In this document: positions 30,602-42,922 of the stretch, piece by piece
Numbering within the stretch: position 1 is the first letter of the stretch
How the letters are laid out: the number at the start of each line of letters is the position of its first letter
Assembly (NCBI GenBank): GCA_963716475.1
Contig: OY970314.1
Location: 500,790 to 564,789, forward strand
DNA length: 64,000 nt
Direction: 5' to 3'
DNA from: Candidatus Woesebacteria bacterium
GTDB lineage: Bacteria > Patescibacteriota > Microgenomatia > UBA8517
Program-made: the position numbers and the translations under genes
Notes under the pieces: model-generated
What the model saw: the letters and a program-made list of their open reading frames with translations, nothing else
Databases searched by the model: none
Told to the model about the DNA's origin: nothing

Positions 30602-31717
30602 TTACCGTAAAGTTCTTTTCACGGTAGCATATATTATTTCTGCACTATTTCGGGGCGTCTGCGACTCAATTATTTTACTAGAAGCTTTTCCCATTCGTTC
30701 CATCAAACTGGCAGAACTTAATATACGTAATATTTTATTAGACAGATCACGTACTGATCCCGACTTAAACACATATCCATTCACACCGTTTTGGACCAAA
30801 TCCGGCGCACAGCCAGCATTGTTTGAAACTACAATCGGCAAACCAGATGCCATAGCCTCATTTACAACTAAACCCCAAACATCTTCTCTCGAAGGTAAAA
30901 CAAACAGGTTTGCTTCCGAAAAAAACTTTCCAATTTTATAATCACCAGGATCTTCTACAAAATTTACGTTCTTGCCTATTCCAAGTTTACTAACTAATTC
31001 AATAAGATAATTTTTAAAAAATCCAGATCCAACAATTGACAATCTAATATTACTTATTCTTTTTTGAATTGATGCGAAAGCTTTTATTAATATATCAACA
31101 CCTTTTCTTTCGATTATTTGCCCGTAATACATAATAACTTTTTCCTTTTTCTGGTTATATTTTTTGGGGTATCTTCTGTATCTATCTAAATCAGTTGTGT
31201 GCTTATAAATGAATATCTTATCCTGCCTTGCACCCAACATTTCCAAATATTCTTTGGCTCTTATTCCGTAAGCAATATATGCATCCGAACCTTTAACAAT
31301 TGATCTAACTAAAGGCAGGCTAATAGTTCTTCTCCAACTATTTTCGTATCTGGTACTTCCAGACCAGAGAATAACTTTAATACCTCTTAGCTTACAGTAG
31401 AAAAAAACTACTTGGTAAGAAAAGATATCCCATCCGGAAATTATTACTACTTCTGGTTTAATTATTCGAAACTCTTTTAAAATTGTAAAGTTTATAAAAT
31501 ATGTAAACAAATCCTTTCCGCGAAATTTAATAGAAATATTTGGAAGAACCTTATATTTAAAACCGGAGGGGCTATCTTTCCAGTTTCTGTTCTCCTCATC
31601 CTGAGAACAATAAATAACATCTAAATCAACCAGTTTGGATAATTCTTTAAAAAGTAATGTCGTATGTGGAGAAACGACATTGTGAATCACAAGAACCTTA
31701 ACCTTATCCTTTACCAT
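30602..31717 (-). CDS. glycosyltransferase family 4
   Basis: 371 aa. LFVLPSREDVWGLVVNEAMASGLPIVVSNNAG. Confidence 0.8.
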   Translation of the reverse strand: MVKDKVKVLVIHNVVSPHTTLLFKELSKLVDLDVIYCSQDEENRNWKDSPSGFKYKVLPNISIKFRGKDLFTYFINFTILKEFRIIKPEVVIISGWDIFSYQVVFFYCKLRGIKVILWSGSTRYENSWRRTISLPLVRSIVKGSDAYIAYGIRAKEYLEMLGARQDKIFIYKHTTDLDRYRRYPKKYNQKKEKVIMYYGQIIERKGVDILIKAFASIQKRISNIRLSIVGSGFFKNYLIELVSKLGIGKNVNFVEDPGDYKIGKFFSEANLFVLPSREDVWGLVVNEAMASGLPIVVSNNAGCAPDLVQNGVNGYVFKSGSVRDLSNKILRILSSASLMERMGKASSKIIESQTPRNSAEIIYATVKRTLR

Positions 31718-32540
31718 TTTTATTCTTTCTTAGAACAAATAAAACATTGTTTTTAGTATCTATTTTTTTACTAATTCGCAAGGTCAGTTTAGCAAAAATT
31801 GGGAACAGCAGTCCGAAAAACGCGGATACGGGTAGAAAGAAAGTATAAATATTAGTAATGATGGGAAACCTTTCATTACATATAAGTTTTGCTTCTAACT
31901 TAAGTCCTGTGGGTATTAATAATCTTTCTTTAAGTGTTTTAGGGCTATATATTCTTGAAAGAAAAACAGGTTTATCCCCATCATATTTGTTTCCATAGGC
32001 ATCTCTTTTTACCCAAATTTCTTTATATTCTTTCCCAAAGGGCGTGGTAATTACAATCTTACCTCCGGGTTTGAGAACCCTACACATTTCTTTAATGCAT
32101 ATTGTGTCTCCATGGCTTTCAATATGTTCTATTACGGATATACTGTATATTTTATCGAAAAAATTATTCCTAAAAGGTAATTTCGTACCGTCAACTGTTA
32201 ATAATTTCAACCTCTTTGAAAGTGTTGAGTTGCCTAAATTATTTTTTATATTTTTCCACTCAAGTATCTCTTTATTCCAAACATCGGTTGCGTAAACATT
32301 GGACTTATATCTTTCTGAAATGTAAAAACTCAACAGTTTCGGACTGGATATATCCAGGATGCTTTCATCTACCTTGGGATTGATATGCTGAAAGGTTGCA
32401 GGAATTTCGAAATATCTTGCTATGTCCATAGGTATAATTATTCGTTTTAAGGCTTCTTTACTAACTCTAAAATTTCCACTTAGGTAATACCTTAATCCCA
32501 AATTAATACTGTAGATGTAAAATTTATACCAAGTATTCAC
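31704..32540 (-). CDS. class I SAM-dependent methyltransferase (Methyltransf_11-like)
   Basis: 278 aa. ...VYATDVWNK...FDKIYSISVIEHIE...VLKPGGKIVITTP (motifs II/III and post-III). Confidence 0.55.
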   Translation of the reverse strand: MNTWYKFYIYSINLGLRYYLSGNFRVSKEALKRIIIPMDIARYFEIPATFQHINPKVDESILDISSPKLLSFYISERYKSNVYATDVWNKEILEWKNIKNNLGNSTLSKRLKLLTVDGTKLPFRNNFFDKIYSISVIEHIESHGDTICIKEMCRVLKPGGKIVITTPFGKEYKEIWVKRDAYGNKYDGDKPVFLSRIYSPKTLKERLLIPTGLKLEAKLICNERFPIITNIYTFFLPVSAFFGLLFPIFAKLTLRISKKIDTKNNVLFVLRKNKNGKG

Positions 32541-33241
32541 TTCTTTATAGATTTGATAATAATATCACTTGAGAATAAAGGCAGATGTAATAACTTTATT
32601 TTCCTAAATAATCCGGAGCATGTTGTATTTTTAACTTTAAACCCAAAATTCGAGACAAGATTGGCCAATGATAAAAAAGTGAAATAGTGCAAAATGCCTC
32701 CGTCCCAGGTTTGAAAATGCGCAAATGATGTAAATATTTGTTTACCACATAGGAGTTGGATTCTATATACAATCCAAGCTAAATTAGGAACCTGAATATA
32801 CATTTCCCCACTTTTTTTCAAAATCCTATTGATTTCCCTAAGAGTAAAATATGGATCGTAACTATACTCGAACGCTGAAATCATAACAACCACATCGAAA
32901 TAATTATCTTTAAAAGGAAGTCTTCCATCCATATCTGATGCGATAAAAGTAATATTTTTTCTTTTATTTTTAATGGCGTTAGCTTTTTTAATGCGGGCTT
33001 TGGCAACGTCAATCCCAAAAATTTGTTTAAAATCCAATTCTTCCCTAAAACAAAATCCACCGTCACCGCAACCCACATCCAAAAGCCTCTCTCCCTTTTT
33101 AACCATCTCAATAATAATATCTTCAGGAGAAACGGAATATTTTCTAAAAAAACGAAAGAGTCCGTCAATTAAGACACCATGTGGTGATTTTCTGTTTGTG
33201 TTGGAGTATGGTATCCCCTGATATTTACTTTTATCAAGCAT
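32537..33241 (-). CDS. class I SAM-dependent methyltransferase
   Basis: 234 aa. Motif I LLDVGCGDGGF, motif II FDVVVMISAFEY, and ILKKSGEMYIQVP. Confidence 0.7.
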   Translation of the reverse strand: MLDKSKYQGIPYSNTNRKSPHGVLIDGLFRFFRKYSVSPEDIIIEMVKKGERLLDVGCGDGGFCFREELDFKQIFGIDVAKARIKKANAIKNKRKNITFIASDMDGRLPFKDNYFDVVVMISAFEYSYDPYFTLREINRILKKSGEMYIQVPNLAWIVYRIQLLCGKQIFTSFAHFQTWDGGILHYFTFLSLANLVSNFGFKVKNTTCSGLFRKIKLLHLPLFSSDIIIKSIKK

Positions 33242-36006: not shown

Positions 36007-37371
36007 TTATCTATGTTGAAATTTTACCCAAAAATCATAAAATACTGAAAAGGCAGTAGTAAAAACCAAAACTCTCCAAAAAATACTAAATCTATCTAAA
36101 TTACCCACAAGGGCCAAAAAGTCTGTGTGAGATGATATGATTCTGTAATACAGCGTTCCTCCAAAAAACATTAAAAGATAGAAGCAACAAAAAAATATTA
36201 AGAAAAAGGTCTCTCTTTTGAGCCTAAATCGCGTTAAAAACCCAAATGTAACTAAAGACACGATTGGTATTATCATCTCCAATATTATAGTCCTGCAAAC
36301 CAAAACAACCGGATCTATTAGCGTTTTCAAACTAAAATTATTCAAGGAAGAAAAAGTCTTACCGATAAAATCAAGCTGTGATAAATACGCATTATTATTA
36401 ACCAAATTATAAGATGCTATATACTTTGTGGATACGAAACCTACAAAAAAATTGAAAATAAAAAACAAGAATACTTCTTTCAGAAACTTCCTTTTAATTA
36501 AAGAGTAGATAAACAAAAAAAGGAAAACGAAAATCCAAACCGGCTCATTTCGTGTAAATCTCGAAAACGCAAATAACAAACCGGACAAAATTAAATAACT
36601 GAATTTCTTTTTAGACATCCAATTTATCAAATAGAAAGTAGCTATAACCAAATAAGTTGACTGAATCAAATCCGTTAATGCGTATAAAGACTGTTCGTAA
36701 AATAATGGATAAAAAGAAACTAAAAAAGCTAAAGACAAAGATAATTTTCTGTTTAAGATTTTTCGACTAAAGGCGTAAACGCACAGAACTAAAGAAGAAA
36801 AAATCAAGGAATAAATAAATTGAGGGTTAAGACTCCCCGCTATATAGAAAATAGCATGAAGAATGGATGTTAATAAAGGATAAGAAATATCATAAAAGGA
36901 TTGTGACGGGAAAAATATACTTTGACTTAAAACCATCAGTTTGGCTCTGTAATCATAAAGTTGTACAGCATCCCACATCCAAACCGGCCAGTATAAAGTC
37001 CTGATTAAAGATGTCAGAAGAAAGAAGGCAATTCCTCCAATAAGGATTCTGTCAAATAAATCAAGACTTTTTATTTTTTTATGGAGAGAATGCCATTCAA
37101 GATTAATCGAATTTTTGAAGAACACCTTATTTAATATTATTAAAAATAGATTAGATAGAGTCAAAAATAGAAAAACATATAAATAATTAAGTTTAAATCC
37201 CAGAAAACTAAGCAAAAACATACCAAACGTTGAAAACCCTATTCCAAGAATTAATCCCGATGATAAAATTTCTATACCGCTAAACTTAAGACGGAACAAT
37301 CTTAAAAAATTAACACCCAGATAGAGAATTAGAAATACAAAAAATATCTGTTTCAAAATATTTATTATCAT
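36007..37371 (-). CDS. polytopic membrane protein, possible GT-C transferase or repeat-unit polymerase (hypothetical)
   Basis: 454 aa, at least 12 TM. Loop YWPVWMWDAVQLYDYRAKL. Extremely AT-rich. Confidence 0.4.
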   Translation of the reverse strand: MIINILKQIFFVFLILYLGVNFLRLFRLKFSGIEILSSGLILGIGFSTFGMFLLSFLGFKLNYLYVFLFLTLSNLFLIILNKVFFKNSINLEWHSLHKKIKSLDLFDRILIGGIAFFLLTSLIRTLYWPVWMWDAVQLYDYRAKLMVLSQSIFFPSQSFYDISYPLLTSILHAIFYIAGSLNPQFIYSLIFSSLVLCVYAFSRKILNRKLSLSLAFLVSFYPLFYEQSLYALTDLIQSTYLVIATFYLINWMSKKKFSYLILSGLLFAFSRFTRNEPVWIFVFLFLFIYSLIKRKFLKEVFLFFIFNFFVGFVSTKYIASYNLVNNNAYLSQLDFIGKTFSSLNNFSLKTLIDPVVLVCRTIILEMIIPIVSLVTFGFLTRFRLKRETFFLIFFCCFYLLMFFGGTLYYRIISSHTDFLALVGNLDRFSIFWRVLVFTTAFSVFYDFWVKFQHR

Positions 37372-38513
37372 TTATCCATTTTAATAATCCCCCAAACGTC
37401 TTTCTCCTTAAAATCTTTAGGATTATATCCCGAATGCAATAATTCCTTTACATAATTACCATCCTCTTGCCTTTCAAGAAAAATTACCTCTTCTGATTTT
37501 ATAGTAAAATCCGGCCATATATAGTCTTTTTGATACTGAGTGTCATATATGGGATGCAGGAAACCTTTTGCTAAAAGAATGTAGTCAAAATCATTTATAT
37601 TAATTCCAGAGTAATAATTTGTTAATTTTCTGTTACCCAAAAATGGTCTGTAATACCTCGAGTCCGCATCAACAGTATGTGGAGAGGCATCTTCGGGCAA
37701 AAGAATGGAAGATCCATCAGGCGTATTATCTTTCACTAAAGTAACAATGTCATACAAAACACCCCACTTGGCTTGCATTTTTTGATCATAAGTGTAATTG
37801 GGGTGAGCAGAAATATAAACTAGGTCTGTCATTGTGTCATTAAGTGTATTAAAAAAATTAACTACTATATAGCCAAGGGAAAGCGAAAATATACAAATTA
37901 ATATAACTGTTTTTAAATCCCACGATAGGGAAATGCCAGACCTCAAGTTTGAACGTAAGCGTAAACAAATACTTGTACCAAAAGGATTCCATGATCTACG
38001 ACGTGCAGGGAAAGAATATTTTATCTGCGGAGTAGGGTCGTTCTTGTTGTTCTTACCGACAATGAGCAGCTTATTAAATATTTCCTTCGTCTTAGGCGTT
38101 CTGCAAAACTTTAAAATGATTAAAGACAGACTCAAATAAAGAATATTCAAAAAATTTTGCGGTTGAATATGAAATGTCGCAAAAACATAATTTGAGTATT
38201 TGACAATATTTGAAACCAGCATGATCCAATAAAAAATAATTATCGGGAGAATAAGTAAGGAGTTCAGGCTCAATATAAAATTTTCCAAACTTCCAGACCT
38301 ATAATTTTTATCCTTTATCCACAAATATAATAGGAGAATAATTGAAATAATAGAAAAGAATAAGAAAAAGCGAGAGTCAACAAAAATATATTTTTTCAAA
38401 AAGCCTGTATACATATAGGATTCTAAAATCAAAAAGAAAAACGAAAGACTTATTAGATAGGGAAAGATTACTTTGTTTACCTTTAAAATCTCAGCAAAAT
38501 AATTATTTTTCAT
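37368..38513 (-). CDS. membrane protein with 4-5 N-terminal TM and a C-terminal extracytoplasmic domain (hypothetical)
   Basis: 381 aa. Arg-rich cytoplasmic loop (FPARRRSWNPF...RLRSNLRSG); the other frames are closed there, so no frameshift. Confidence 0.4.
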   Translation of the reverse strand: MKNNYFAEILKVNKVIFPYLISLSFFFLILESYMYTGFLKKYIFVDSRFFLFFSIISIILLLYLWIKDKNYRSGSLENFILSLNSLLILPIIIFYWIMLVSNIVKYSNYVFATFHIQPQNFLNILYLSLSLIILKFCRTPKTKEIFNKLLIVGKNNKNDPTPQIKYSFPARRRSWNPFGTSICLRLRSNLRSGISLSWDLKTVILICIFSLSLGYIVVNFFNTLNDTMTDLVYISAHPNYTYDQKMQAKWGVLYDIVTLVKDNTPDGSSILLPEDASPHTVDADSRYYRPFLGNRKLTNYYSGININDFDYILLAKGFLHPIYDTQYQKDYIWPDFTIKSEEVIFLERQEDGNYVKELLHSGYNPKDFKEKDVWGIIKMDK

Positions 38514-40201
38514 TTAGGAGTTTCTTGAGTTGGGTAAAAACCGGATTTGATATTCCCAGGCTGAAACATTTTAAACTTACCCACACTTGGAGCACACGGC
38601 AATTGCGAATTAACACACTGATCGCCATTAACCGGCATCCAAATATAAAAAGACTGATCCGAGTAACTGACAGTAACAGATCTAACTAAAGAGCTCTCTT
38701 CTTTTTGAACAATAAACAATTCTGGTTGTTCTTTTAAGGTTATTGCTTTAAAAAGGTAGCTAGATATTAGAAATATAAAAACCAAAATGATTGTTGACTT
38801 AAAAAAATCGTATTTAAAAAAATTAACAAAGAATGAAGACAAAATTAAGGAAATCGAAACAAATATGAATATTCCCATATATCTAAGGTCGGGGGCAGTC
38901 AAAAAGGTATACAAAAGAGTTGCTGTGCTGGCCAAAACTAGAAAGTTGACCTTTCTTATATCTGTTATGGAGCTTAATTGTTTTTTTGATTTACCCGTAG
39001 AATAAAAATACATAAATATCAAAAAAAACAAAAGAAATATATAATACAGACTAGGGTTATTTTTATTGTAATTAAACCAACTTATAAACCAATCCCAAAA
39101 ATTAGCATTCACAGAACTCAAATAATATGGTCCAGGCAAACGTGCAAAACCAGTTATAACATTATTAATGTTCTTTAGTTGTTCTAACGGAACTTGCCAT
39201 TTAAAGTTTAGGCCAAAATATGGGAATGGGAAAAGGGCCCAGCCGGACAAAATTAGATTTCTAATTATAAAACTCACCAAAAATATAAATGAAAGGAATA
39301 AAATGTACACATTTTTTTTCAGTAAAACTTTATCTTTCAATTCAATAAGTATAAATAATGAAAATAAAGCTAAAACGATAAAACAAGAGAATTTTGAAGT
39401 TGCTGCCAGTATCAGTATCGGCATAGACAACACCAGGTTTTCTCTTTCAAAGAGCATGAAATAGAAATTAAACAACAATAGAAAAATTGCCATACTCAGA
39501 TCGGTTGAAAGTGAATTAATTTGGCCAATAAAATAATATTGACCAATAAAAATTGATAGAATTAAAATGGAAAAAAGTCCAAAAAAATAGGCTAAAATAT
39601 TTTTTGGTTTTCTAAACAAAAATAGAATAATCTGAGAAGCAAAAACAAAAACCAAAAAAGAGTTCATGACATGGCTTGAGGAATTTGTAAAAACGCCGTG
39701 ATTCATAATTGCTGCTAAAAGAAAAGTTACGTTGTTTATACCCAAAGGGAATTGTAGATTAGCTAAACCCTTAACAGAACCGTAATCAGTTAGCCACTTA
39801 ATTGAATTAAGATGGTAAAGATTTGTGTCATACCACGTAACTGGCAAGTTAGATAAAAAGGAAACAAAAAAGGCTAAAATTACAAAAAGCAATATTTTTT
39901 TATAATCAATATGTTGAAATATATTCCTTAATATAAGTCTCCAGTTAAATTTTATATTTCTTAAATTTAACAAAAATAGGAAAAGGTTAAATGCAATCGA
40001 GTAAGTTAGCACCTTACCATTTAATGGATGGAAAAGAGAAATGATTTCCAAAACCAATACAAAAGAAAACAATCCAAACCAAAAGTTGTAAAAAAAATCA
40101 ATTTTTTTGTTATCTTTCTTAAATATTATTCTTAAAACAAAGAAGCCGATGTTAAAACAAAACAGGAACCAAAATATCCAAGCAAGAATTATATAAATCA
40201 T
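38510..40201 (-). CDS. polytopic membrane protein (hypothetical; candidate polymerase or GT-C)
   Basis: 563 aa, at least 12 TM. C-terminal region with Cys (DQCVNSQLPCAPSVGKF). Confidence 0.4.
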   Translation of the reverse strand: MIYIILAWIFWFLFCFNIGFFVLRIIFKKDNKKIDFFYNFWFGLFSFVLVLEIISLFHPLNGKVLTYSIAFNLFLFLLNLRNIKFNWRLILRNIFQHIDYKKILLFVILAFFVSFLSNLPVTWYDTNLYHLNSIKWLTDYGSVKGLANLQFPLGINNVTFLLAAIMNHGVFTNSSSHVMNSFLVFVFASQIILFLFRKPKNILAYFFGLFSILILSIFIGQYYFIGQINSLSTDLSMAIFLLLFNFYFMLFERENLVLSMPILILAATSKFSCFIVLALFSLFILIELKDKVLLKKNVYILFLSFIFLVSFIIRNLILSGWALFPFPYFGLNFKWQVPLEQLKNINNVITGFARLPGPYYLSSVNANFWDWFISWFNYNKNNPSLYYIFLLFFLIFMYFYSTGKSKKQLSSITDIRKVNFLVLASTATLLYTFLTAPDLRYMGIFIFVSISLILSSFFVNFFKYDFFKSTIILVFIFLISSYLFKAITLKEQPELFIVQKEESSLVRSVTVSYSDQSFYIWMPVNGDQCVNSQLPCAPSVGKFKMFQPGNIKSGFYPTQETPK

Positions 40202-40359
40202 TTCTAATTTCCCTAATTACGCAAATTCATTGTATTTACGAATCTCACAAACACAACGTTACTGTACTCAGGACCAATCGGCCTCATCGCTAAATTCGGT
40301 CAAGCCAATCCTCGCAATCTAAACCATTTCAAGTATAATAGGCCGTAAACCTAAACTAA

Positions 40360-41460
40360 ATGACTAACATTTTCCAGAAATTGTACCATAAAGACTTACA
40401 AAAAACCTATCGGGGCTTCACGGCTTCGGACGGGGATGTGGTTTTGGACAATGTTATCGGAGACATCCCCGATCTTCAAACCTATTTTGAAAACCTAAGG
40501 GAGAATGTCTTACCGGATAGCAAAATCCTGATTTCCTACCACAACCCGTCCTGGGAGCCGGTTTTGACTCTTGCTTCAAAACTGGGGCTCAGAAGGAATG
40601 TTGGGATTCAAAATTGGTTAGACCTGAACGATTTGAAAAACATTCTAAATCTTTCGGGATTTGAGGTGATAAGGTCACAAAAAAGATTTTTCGGTATCAC
40701 AACCATTACTATCGTCCGCCCAATCAACTATCAACCATCAACCATTACCCATCAATATAGTGTATCTATCGTGATCCCCGCTCGTAATGAGGAAGGGAAT
40801 ATTCCAAAAATTCTACCTAGTATTCCCAAATTTGGTAAATCGCAGGAGATAATTTTTGTGGAAGGGCATTCAAAAGATAATACATGGGGTAAAATCCAAA
40901 AGACTGCTTCAAAAAAATATCCAAAAAACATTTCGGTCATCGGTCTTAAACAAACAGGCAGGGGAAAGGCGGATGCTACCTGGCTCGGACTTTCAAAAGC
41001 AACCGGAGATATCTTAATGATCTATGATGCCGACCGGACGGTTGACGCTAAAGATCTTCCCAAATTTTATAACGTTCTGGCTAAAGGAATTGGAGAGTTT
41101 GCCAACGGAAGCCGTATGGTTTATCCGATGGAACAGGATGCTATGCAGGCTCTAAACAAAATCGGAAATCAAATGTTCAGCCGGCTGTTTACTTGGATTT
41201 TGGGACAGCATTTCAAAGACACACTTTGCGGAACCAAAGCTTTCTTCCGGAAAGATTTTCAAAAGTTCAGGCGTTCAAAAACCGATCCTTTCGGGGATTT
41301 TGACCTGATTTTCGGGGCTGTCAGAAATAGTCTTAAAGTAATTGAAATACCTGTTCGGTATAAAGAGCGGGTTTACGGATCAACCAACATAAATAGATTC
41401 CGTCACGGGTTACTTCTTGCCAAAATGGCAATTCTTGCCTTTAAGGAATTTAGGACTTAA
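40360..41460 (+). CDS. GT2 glycosyltransferase (DPM1/GtrB-like) with an N-terminal truncated methyltransferase-like domain
   Basis: 366 aa. The C-terminal ~230 aa are GT2 (VSIVIPARNEEGNI...MIYDADRTVD...CGTKAFFR...RYKERVYGSTNI). The N-terminal ~130 aa (DVVLDNVIGDIPDLQTYFENL...ILISYHNPSWEPVLTLASKLG...LNDLKNIL) match the C-terminal half of the neighbouring split methyltransferase but lack SAM motif I. Confidence 0.7.
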   Translation: MTNIFQKLYHKDLQKTYRGFTASDGDVVLDNVIGDIPDLQTYFENLRENVLPDSKILISYHNPSWEPVLTLASKLGLRRNVGIQNWLDLNDLKNILNLSGFEVIRSQKRFFGITTITIVRPINYQPSTITHQYSVSIVIPARNEEGNIPKILPSIPKFGKSQEIIFVEGHSKDNTWGKIQKTASKKYPKNISVIGLKQTGRGKADATWLGLSKATGDILMIYDADRTVDAKDLPKFYNVLAKGIGEFANGSRMVYPMEQDAMQALNKIGNQMFSRLFTWILGQHFKDTLCGTKAFFRKDFQKFRRSKTDPFGDFDLIFGAVRNSLKVIEIPVRYKERVYGSTNINRFRHGLLLAKMAILAFKEFRT

Positions 41461-42131
41461 CGGCGACGAAGTACTCAATAAAAGCTAGGTTTTTGAAATA
41501 TTTCTCCAAATACTTATTCGCAAAGTCTGTAATCACTGGGATTTTAACTGGGATTAGAAGTCCGAAGTCGTGTTTGACGAGTCTTAATTTTGAATTTTTA
41601 TCACGAAGTGTCGTTTCTATCATTAACTTTAAATCATTAAACGCTACACGTTTGTGTGGCCCTTCTTTCATTTTCCAACCCAATTTTTCCCAAACAATCA
41701 TAAGCGGTTCCCAAATAGGATTTGCCATTGTGCAAATGAGGATCGTCCCATTATCCATCAACCCGGAGATCTTTCGAAAGGTCTCTTCCGGTTTTTCCAA
41801 ATGCTCGATAACATCACTCATAAAAATATAATCAAACTTTTCTTTCGGCCAAACTGTTGAAAACTGCAAGTTTTTTGAATCTTTGTATTTGAGCCTTGAT
41901 ATTATGATCATCTGACCACTAATATCCGTTCCGTACCCGTATCTTGGATCCAATGAGGCCAAAAGGTCTCCCTGTTCCACACCCTACTTCAAAAACTTTT
42001 TTGTTTTTCGGAATTAGTTCTCCAAGAAGTTTTTTTAAACTTTCGTAATAGTATGAATACTTTCTCTTGCCATAATCATAGTTTTTCGCTACACGATCGA
42101 AATGTTGCTCGACAGACAAATCTGATTTCAT
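41450..42131 (-). pseudogene. class I SAM-dependent methyltransferase interrupted by a +1 frameshift immediately after motif I
   Basis: Fragment A (41919-42131) ends ...VFEVGCGTGRPFGLIGSKIRVRNGY*. Fragment B (41450-41980, GTG start) begins (V)EQGDLLASLDPRY... and carries ...FDYIFMSDVIEHLEKPEETF...NGTILICTMANPIWEP. A one-nucleotide shift within GGGAGACC (about 41960-41967) would join them. Confidence 0.6.
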
Positions 42132-42922
42132 ATCACTCCTCCGACAAATCTGCGTCCGTAATTATGAAGCATATGTAAAAATAGAATAATTATATTTCCG
42201 GTATATTTTTTGACAACTTTTTCATCTTCCGAAAGTAATTTTTCCGTCATCGTTTTGGTAATGGTTGAAGGTTCTACCCTAAACCCCGAGAGGTATTTGT
42301 CCGTAACTACGGGCATTTTATGGCTTGTAATTTTCAGCCACAAATCATACTCCGTTACAAAATCGGACGTTCCCGTAAAAGGACCGAATTTTTCCCAAGC
42401 CTTTTTCGTTACAAAAACGGAAGGTTGCATCAGATAGTTGGTTATCAGAAGGTAGATCTTGGAATTTAAAGAAAGAAGAAAATTTTTATAACAAGTAACA
42501 ATCTTTGCGATTTCGCGACCATTTGAATTTATCACCTTTCCCCTGCCCGCAAACCAGAGGGCACTGGAATTTGAAATATACATCTTTGAAATTTCACTTA
42601 AGGCTCCGGACAGATAGACGTCGTCGGCATTGATATAAGTTAAAATATCCCCAGTTGCTTTACCTAACCCTGTATTTATTGCGTCAAGTTGTCCTTTGTC
42701 TTTTCTTGATTCGAATTTAATGACTTTCGGGTATTTTTGTGCACATTCTTGAATTATCCCAAGAGTTCCGTCAGTGGAACCGCCGTCCTGAATAATCACT
42801 TCCAAATTAGAGTATTTCTGATTTACAATCGACTCAAGTGTCTGGCCAATATATTTAACTTTATTAAATGAAGGTATTACTACCGAAATAAGAGGATTCT
42901 GCATTCTGTAATCTATAATCAC
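42128..42922 (-). CDS. glycosyltransferase family 2
   Basis: 264 aa. ISVVIPSFNKVKYIGQTLESIVNQKYSNLEVIIQDGGSTDGT...YINADDV. Confidence 0.8.
   Translation of the reverse strand: MIIDYRMQNPLISVVIPSFNKVKYIGQTLESIVNQKYSNLEVIIQDGGSTDGTLGIIQECAQKYPKVIKFESRKDKGQLDAINTGLGKATGDILTYINADDVYLSGALSEISKMYISNSSALWFAGRGKVINSNGREIAKIVTCYKNFLLSLNSKIYLLITNYLMQPSVFVTKKAWEKFGPFTGTSDFVTEYDLWLKITSHKMPVVTDKYLSGFRVEPSTITKTMTEKLLSEDEKVVKKYTGNIIILFLHMLHNYGRRFVGGVI

Follow-up and report, generated by a model that had tools for sequence, protein, structure and literature searches.

How does a glycosyltransferase come to carry half of a methyltransferase domain at its N-terminus, and is this half the debris of a decaying gene or a working part of the protein? 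The question is raised by a locus in the genome of a Candidatus Woesebacteria bacterium (assembly GCA_963716475.1, contig OY970314.1), within a stretch of 64,000 nucleotides (forward-strand positions 500,790 to 564,789), the whole of which was analysed and to which we refer as the window. Here, a plus-strand gene codes for a glycosyltransferase family 2 (GT2) protein with a truncated methyltransferase (MT)-like domain, and it converges on a minus-strand gene for a stand-alone class I MT, dependent on S-adenosylmethionine (SAM), whose reading frame is broken directly after the SAM-binding motif. A preliminary description of the DNA had attributed this arrangement to a local duplication in which a bifunctional MT/GT2 architecture is decaying, and had named the recruitment of the truncated domain as a non-catalytic module as the alternative.

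Our comparisons lead to a different view of the locus. The half-MT::GT2 protein is a conserved, long-standing and selected architecture of its bacterial clade within the Candidate Phyla Radiation (CPR), and its two MT-like segments go back to an ancient paralogy rather than to a recent local duplication. Taken as a whole, we think it likely that the clade-wide short form derives from a bifunctional fusion, and that it is accompanied by a conserved MT partner, in which the frameshift of the window is an isolated event. This corrects an annotation trap, in that the short MT-like N-terminus of these Patescibacteria GT2 proteins should be taken neither for the result of a mis-called start nor for a sign of gene decay. 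It also provides a natural example of an enzyme domain whose cofactor-binding half was lost and whose other half was kept, with a paralogous enzyme encoded alongside, and it bears on the conversion of domains into scaffolds as well as on the synthesis of surface glycans in the reduced genomes of the CPR.

The truncated architecture is conserved

The plus-strand gene is intact, and its product can be divided into three parts:

40360-41460, plus strand: half-MT::GT2 gene, intact, 366 aa (open reading frame (ORF); same-length, same-start homologs are 63-79% identical)
40360-40437, plus strand: conserved N-terminal helix, residues 1-26, MxxNIFQKLYHKDLxKxY (alignment and AlphaFold2 model)
40438-40722, plus strand: class I MT remnant, residues 27-121, strands beta4-beta7, motifs HNPxWEP and QNW (Pfam, hhalign, AlphaFold2 model)
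40762-41457, plus strand: GT2 catalytic domain, GT-A fold, DPMS/ArnC/GtrB type, residues 135-366 (Pfam, PDB, Foldseek)

In Pfam, residues 136-299 are recognized as Glycos_transf_2 (E 3.2e-19), and residues 28-104 match positions 86-162 of the 164 positions of Methyltransf_23 (E 6.8e-5, below the gathering score). The remnant thus covers the C-terminal part of the MT domain and is devoid of beta1-beta3, with neither motif I nor the ribose-binding acidic residue. In the AlphaFold2 model of the protein (mean predicted local distance difference test 77, predicted template modelling score 0.75), the N-terminal domain consists of a helix (residues 4-22) and four strands (27-30, 56-61, 101-109 and 114-121), which identify it as the beta4-beta7 half of a Rossmann fold. 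As had been noticed before, motif I is missing not just from the fusion domain, but also from the DNA upstream: a sequence scan of the GT2 ORF found no GxGxG, and a tblastn search in which the queries were the first 115 aa of 68 full-length MT::GT2 fusions, described below, found no remnant of an MT N-half upstream of 40360. The sole strong target of these 68 N-halves in the window was the true MT at 41.5-42.1 kb.

The short form is by no means peculiar to the window. In a search covering 5.8 billion proteins, the best 119 non-self homologs of the 366-aa protein were all of the same short form (334-397 aa, 63-79% identity, query coverage of at least 92%) and, where the source names their origin, come from Microgenomates/Patescibacteria, including Woesebacteria; at the level of genomic loci, CPR short forms reach down to 58% identity. 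All 26 aligned short-form members share an identical Met start (MxxNIFQKLYHKDL). Across this alignment, the majority-residue frequency is 0.79 for the remnant (residues 27-121) and likewise 0.79 for the GT2 domain, and this equal conservation points to purifying selection rather than to decay. The invariant residues of the remnant include H61, N62, W65, E66, P67, Q84, N85 and W86, and its sequences YHNPSWEP and QNWLD are invariant; within residues 1-26, the invariant positions are Q6, Y9, D12, L13, Y17 and F20.

We also considered that the short forms might be 5'-truncated ORF calls. This is ruled out by upstream stop codons in CPR relatives (L004, L006) and, for the window itself, by a divergent gene that starts just 158 bp upstream of the GT2 ORF.

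The remnant probably descends from a fused methyltransferase domain

The origin of the remnant becomes apparent from relatives outside the clade. We scanned the loci of one genome per species, which yielded 7 CPR short-form loci and 73 loci of other phyla, namely Bacteroidota, Deltaproteobacteria, Verrucomicrobia, Omnitrophica, Planctomycetota and others. The latter are 44-48% identical to the window protein, with the similarity setting in at query residue ~27 (27-365). In 71 of the 73, the ORF spans at least 460 aa, and its upstream part encodes an MT N-half with the motif LEVGCGxG; complete Methyltransf_23 and Glycos_transf_2 domains were detected with Pfam in two representatives (L034 and L013). 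The full-length fusion is the form found in each of the other phyla sampled. We take these ~470-aa fusions to be the proteins that NCBI names 'bifunctional class I SAM-dependent methyltransferase/glycosyltransferase family 2'. No experimental characterization of the full-length family came up in literature searches.

The full-length fusions and the window protein share an orthologous GT2 domain (hhalign probability 100%, 50% profile-level identity) with the motifs FKDTLCGT(K), (V)YPME, DPFGDF and RYKER.YG.TNI.RF, and they also share the C-terminal half of the MT domain with its (Y/H)N..WEP (NxxWEP) and QNWL motifs. Unlike the fusions, the window protein and its CPR relatives are without the first ~75 residues and without a ~25-residue insert, and they instead feature a clade-specific N-terminal helix. 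In the profile alignment (hhalign, probability 100%), the missing N-terminal part corresponds to full-length positions 1-74, comprising motif I, beta1 and beta2, and the missing insert (IPxLxxFxNRYxAKLP...) appears as a 25-column gap between beta6 and beta7. The N-terminal helix (residues 1-26) has no confident counterpart in the full-length fusions; hhalign places it with low confidence on their alphaB/beta3 region.

The preliminary description had proposed that the two MT-like segments of the window are homologous at roughly 40% identity. Their homology is borne out both by BLASTP (34% identity over 38 aa, E 1e-6) and by a comparison of the family profiles (probability 97.1%, E 5e-11, GT2 residues 27-111 against MT residues 102-186), while the identity is lower than estimated, between 26% over 85 columns and 34% over 38 aa. 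What did not hold up is the notion that one segment is a local copy of the other. The remnant matches the C-terminal half of the fused MT domains with a median of 39% identity over 84 aa (79 bits), whereas its identity to stand-alone MTs of the neighbour's type is just 22-27% (about 20-44 bits). Being nearer to the former, it appears to have descended from a fused MT domain by deletion and not by copying of the neighbouring gene. The proposed comparison with intact bifunctional orthologs was informative in this respect, as it is on these sequence grounds that the full-length MT::GT2 proteins are identified as the putative ancestral-type state of the short form.

We therefore propose the following scenario. 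A bifunctional class I MT::GT2 ancestor of ~470 aa, as found today in Bacteroidota, Deltaproteobacteria, Verrucomicrobia and others, would have undergone two deletions in the CPR subfamily, one of the first ~75 residues, including motif I and the acidic residue of beta2, and one of the ~25-residue insert between beta6 and beta7. This would have left beta4-beta7, joined to a new N-terminal helix. Measured against the class I MT fold, the remnant lacks three of the four elements that canonically contact SAM, so that canonical SAM binding is not expected of it. The remnant is constrained as tightly as the catalytic domain and would have been kept as a structural, non-catalytic module; methylation would be provided in trans by the stand-alone convergent MT, at a locus that lies within a conserved cluster for glycan biosynthesis.

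Degenerate or pseudoenzyme domains are known to be kept in multidomain enzymes, and the remnant resembles them in that its cofactor-binding half is missing, although it is conserved no less than its catalytic partner. It is thus most likely a structural, non-catalytic module of the GT2 enzyme. The recruitment that the preliminary description had offered as its alternative fits these data well, given the conservation of 0.79 and the absence of the SAM-binding half.

A broken MT part was also seen in one of the full-length fusions. In a Bacteroidetes metagenome-assembled genome (L076), the MT::GT2 gene is frameshifted within the MT N-half, with motif I in a different frame that stops soon after. 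This independent case is probably an indel error, as judged from the contig name, which starts with 'tig' and resembles those of long-read assemblies.

A paralogous methyltransferase is encoded on the opposite strand

The gene that faces the half-MT::GT2 gene is the last of a minus-strand operon:

41450-42131, minus strand: stand-alone class I SAM-dependent MT, 226 aa once repaired, last gene of the operon (ORFs and orthologs)
41450-41460, both genes: overlap of the convergent GT2 and MT genes at their 3' ends, 11 bp (ORF coordinates)
41969-41972, minus strand: frameshift, one base too many in GGGA ahead of GAC, an A or a G (ortholog comparison)
41970-41990, minus strand: motif I, EVGCGTG, the SAM-binding glycine loop (read from the sequence; G50, C51, G52, T53 and G54 are invariant)
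42140-42136, minus strand: AGGAG ribosome-binding site of the MT (sequence)
42128-42922, minus strand: upstream operon partner, a GT2 protein of 264 aa, whose stop codon overlaps the MT start (ATGA, 42131-42128) (ORFs, Pfam)

In the window, the MT gene is split into an ORF of 70 aa for the N-terminal part (41919-42131) and one of 176 aa for the C-terminal part (41450-41980). The repaired protein matches Methyltransf_23, Methyltransf_12 and Methyltransf_11 in Pfam, as does the C-terminal part on its own. Its best 119 homologs are all intact (214-233 aa, 55-69% identity, coverage of at least 96%). Its orthologs are stand-alone MTs of Microgenomates, which the sources list as 'Methyltransferase type 12' or 'class I SAM-dependent methyltransferase' and which agree with it in genomic position and, once the window gene is repaired, in length. 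The window MT differs from 16 aligned orthologs by the one-base insertion after motif I and by an insertion of six residues, TLRDKN. The latter is located at ~41585-41602 on the minus strand and is found in none of the 16.

The pairing of the two genes is a general feature of the clade. An intact MT, detected as a single high-scoring segment pair, lies on the opposite strand in 16 of the 19 CPR loci whose sequence extends 700 bp or more beyond the GT2 gene (4 further loci are cut by contig ends and are not included in this count). In 15 of these 16, it abuts the 3' end of the GT2 gene or lies within about 50 bp of it; in L003, it is ~1.4 kb off. In one Microgenomates relative (L087), the MT is cleanly absent, and the next gene facing the GT2 fusion is the 264-aa GT2 (L087 5089-5112), which indicates that the loss of the MT is tolerated naturally. 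No MT was found within reach of the GT2 gene in L086 and L113. The synteny extends further to the right, where the MT, the 264-aa GT2, a DUF2304 protein, a 229-aa GT2, an epimerase and a PIG-V-like membrane protein are shared in this order with CPR relatives at 54-84% identity.

At their 3' ends, the convergent genes abut or overlap by 1-5 bp in the relatives L002, L006, L008, L083 and L090, compared to 11 bp in the window. Such an overlap leaves no room for a terminator between the genes, and transcriptional interference or antisense coupling would be possible consequences. A scan for promoters and terminators returned counts that were not above those in shuffled sequence.

The stand-alone MT and the fused MT domain belong to one family. 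The repaired MT aligns end to end with the fused domains (tblastn, residues ~7-223, E down to 1e-32), and an exhaustive profile search with the stand-alone MTs returned 153 representative clusters at E <= 1e-30, among which MT::GT2 proteins of 465-493 aa are interleaved, 4 of them confirmed with Pfam; such proteins occur within the best 150 representatives. Both forms have the family-specific C-terminal tail IPxxxxFxNKYLE...FIEYFVA in common. They are distributed in a complementary manner: loci with full-length fusions are generally without an adjacent MT of this family, while the CPR short form is nearly always accompanied by one that abuts it convergently, which suggests that methylation is supplied in trans, not in cis, in the CPR clade.

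Members of this MT family were repeatedly found fused to glycosyltransferases. Besides the MT::GT2 form, these arrangements include PMT_2::MT::GT2 (P0315, 913 aa), MT::GT2 with a long C-terminal extension (P0357, 909 aa) and GT2::MT (P0242, 450 aa), and an MT::MT protein was also seen (P0248, 438 aa). We considered P0242 as a Rosetta-stone link to the 264-aa or the 229-aa GT2 of the window, and rejected it as not specific, since its identity to them is just 28-29%.

An isolated frameshift in the methyltransferase sequence

The preliminary description had placed a frameshift right after the EVGCGTG motif of the convergent MT, and the comparison with orthologous genes traces it to a single extra base. 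The MT can be read up to EVGCGTG (41990-41970) and is then out of frame, with the other frame continuing as DLLASLDPRYGYGTDISGQMI. Where the window has ACA GGG A GAC CTT TTG GCC, the ortholog L090 has ACA GGG GAT CTT TTG GCC (in a wider view of the site, ACAGGGAGACCTTTTGGCC in the window and ACAGGGGATCTTTTGGCC in L090), and 11 further orthologs are in frame. With the extra base removed, the junction GCGTG/DLL equals the consensus in 16 of 16 aligned orthologs.

The gene still has motif I as well as a GTDIS motif downstream of it, but the two are read in different frames, and no single reading frame of this gene encodes a complete seven-stranded MT fold. The gene is thereby disrupted relative to its 119 intact homologs and to 16 intact syntenic orthologs. 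In all other respects it appears undamaged, with all 53 columns that are invariant in the 16-ortholog alignment kept and with the ribosome-binding site and the start codon intact. This lack of any degeneration besides the extra base implies that the frameshift is either very recent or a sequence error. The site is not a long homopolymer, and the MT is the only visibly split gene in the window, in which 60 long ORFs tile 97.6% of the sequence.

Alternative explanations

Several other readings of the locus deserve consideration. The duplication proposed initially, in which both MT-like segments stem from a recent local event and the bifunctional architecture is now decaying in this genome, has in its favour that the segments are truly homologous and adjacent, that one of them is broken, and that both carry the family-specific NPxWEP motif. 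Yet the short form, with its start, is common to the 119 best homologs (down to 63% identity) and to CPR loci down to 58%, its remnant is conserved as strongly as the catalytic domain and is closer to the full-length fusions than to its neighbour, and the convergent pair is kept in 16 of 19 loci. We consider such a duplication very improbable. Another reading would assign a more specific task to the remnant, namely that of a docking site for the stand-alone paralogous MT, by which the bifunctional enzyme, a single chain in other phyla, would be rebuilt in trans. The complementary distribution of fusions and convergent, abutting MTs would agree with it, as would the strong conservation of the non-catalytic remnant and the fact that MTs of this family have repeatedly been joined to GT2 domains, on one side or the other (P0242, P0273, P0315). 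On the other hand, the remnant persists without an MT in L087, L086 and L113, and in the window with a broken one, and the MT is co-transcribed with the 264-aa GT2, which may be its real partner. Docking is therefore unlikely in our view. Less probable again is the bolder scenario in which Microgenomates would have split an ancestral MT::GT2 protein, with the remnant docking the separate MT and glycan methylation made optional by deletion (L087) or by frameshift (window); if true, a switchable methylation of a lipid-linked sugar or glycan would diversify the cell-surface glycan.

As regards the frameshift, we lean towards a very recent inactivating mutation that would leave a 70-aa dead end. 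The existence of two other intact MTs 9 kb away counts in favour of such a real lesion. That it is instead an artefact of sequencing, consensus building or assembly, and that the organism has an unbroken locus with an intact 226-aa MT, is a serious possibility, although we would not call it probable. It would readily explain why the 53 invariant residues are retained along with the AGGAG ribosome-binding site and an ATGA-coupled start, why both frames are open and why every other ortholog examined is intact. Moreover, in the Logan assembly of run ERR12035932, the corresponding contig has two single-nucleotide differences to the window and stops 52 nt before the site, which hints at population heterogeneity nearby. 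Against an artefact speak the nature of the site, GGGA being no long homopolymer, the absence of a second split gene, by which the assembly does not seem prone to indels, the tolerated loss of the MT in L087, and the public record, in which the window's own annotated MT is a 170-aa product of the downstream part (P0121). A programmed +1 ribosomal frameshift at GGG-AGA-C, with tRNA-Gly slipping from GGG to GGA and thereby restoring the MT, is hardly credible: the tRNA could in principle re-pair in this way, and the frame downstream shows no damage at all, but the extra base is found in none of the 12 orthologs examined at the DNA level, and AGA, as the most frequent Arg codon among the genes of the window (160 of 436), is not a 'hungry' codon on which to stall.

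The explanation by deletion from a fused ancestor, retention of the remnant and an isolated lesion in the partner gene, more likely real than not, has its own weak points. The putative role of the remnant is judged from its conservation, and residues 1-26 are placed with low confidence in the global alignment of the profiles. The proposed direction of change, that is, loss in the CPR as opposed to gain elsewhere, follows from the reasoning that an ancestral state would not consist of half a Rossmann fold. As for the lesion, the nearest intact MT ortholog available for comparison is just 69% identical.

The Logan contig (L001) corresponds to window positions 36360-41917 and differs from the window solely at 36542 and 36546. 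No repeated 31-mer was found inside the window that would explain why it breaks off, which points to heterogeneous strains in the vicinity of the MT gene. No independent assembly crossing the site was found in searches with the 264-aa GT2 (two starts), the DUF2304 protein, the epimerase and the 170-aa MT product. By itself, a frameshifted MT is an ordinary finding, which at most indicates strain-level variation in glycan methylation.

The glycosyltransferase domain and its genomic context

The best solved relative of the GT2 domain is the dolichol-phosphate mannose synthase (DPMS) of Pyrococcus (PDB 5mlz, E 6.3e-15), followed by ArnC and GtrB. A structural search with Foldseek retrieved the same proteins in the same ranking as by sequence, with E-values of 1.7e-13 for ArnC (probability 1.00) and 1.7e-12 for DPMS, and also GtrB. 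Among the NCBIfam models, AglJ is the top match (E 3.7e-30, far below the equivalog cut-off). These polyprenyl-phosphate glycosyltransferases, that is, Pyrococcus DPMS (5mlz), ArnC (9b77, 9bhc), GtrB (5ekp, 9nyc) and AglJ, have the GT-A fold in common with the window protein, together with an aligned DAD motif for the binding of metal and nucleotide-sugar (YDADRT in the window, MDADLQ in 5mlz). Unlike GtrB, ArnC and archaeal DPMS, which possess transmembrane helices, the window protein is predicted to have none, and it features the N-terminal MT remnant. No transmembrane helix was predicted in its 366 residues (maximum 19-residue Kyte-Doolittle mean 1.02), and its C-terminus forms an amphipathic helix in the AlphaFold2 model (residues 343-365).

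Based on these similarities, our best guess for the acceptor of the GT2 protein is polyprenyl-phosphate, and the enzyme would probably supply a lipid-linked sugar to adjacent membrane glycosyltransferases of the GT-C type. This putative role as a lipid-phosphate sugar synthase gains support from the PMT_2::MT::GT2 triple fusion P0315 and from the GT-C-like genes that flank the locus. The absence of a predicted transmembrane helix and the NCBIfam scores far below the equivalog cut-offs speak against it.

The GT2 gene is embedded in a glycan cluster of ~20 kb. It contains several GT-C-like membrane proteins (PMT_2, DUF8201, PIG-V-like and DUF2079), a pair of DUF2304 and GT2 genes, GT4 glycosyltransferases, a DegT aminotransferase and two further methyltransferases. 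The latter are intact class I MT genes (31704-32540 and 32537-33241, minus strand), located ~9 kb from the frameshifted MT and close to the DegT aminotransferase and GT4 genes, and they could compensate for it.

The left-hand part of this region differs in composition, with a G+C content of 0.29-0.35 between 28000 and 40200, compared to 0.38-0.42 elsewhere in the window. This block holds the GT-C-like genes for PMT_2 (36007-37371), a 381-aa membrane protein and DUF8201 (38510-40201). In CPR relatives, its GT-C-like genes are 23-41% identical or absent, in contrast to the 54-84% seen rightward of the GT2 fusion. The block has the appearance of a glycan-diversity segment that evolves fast or is exchangeable, and it borders the half-MT::GT2 locus.

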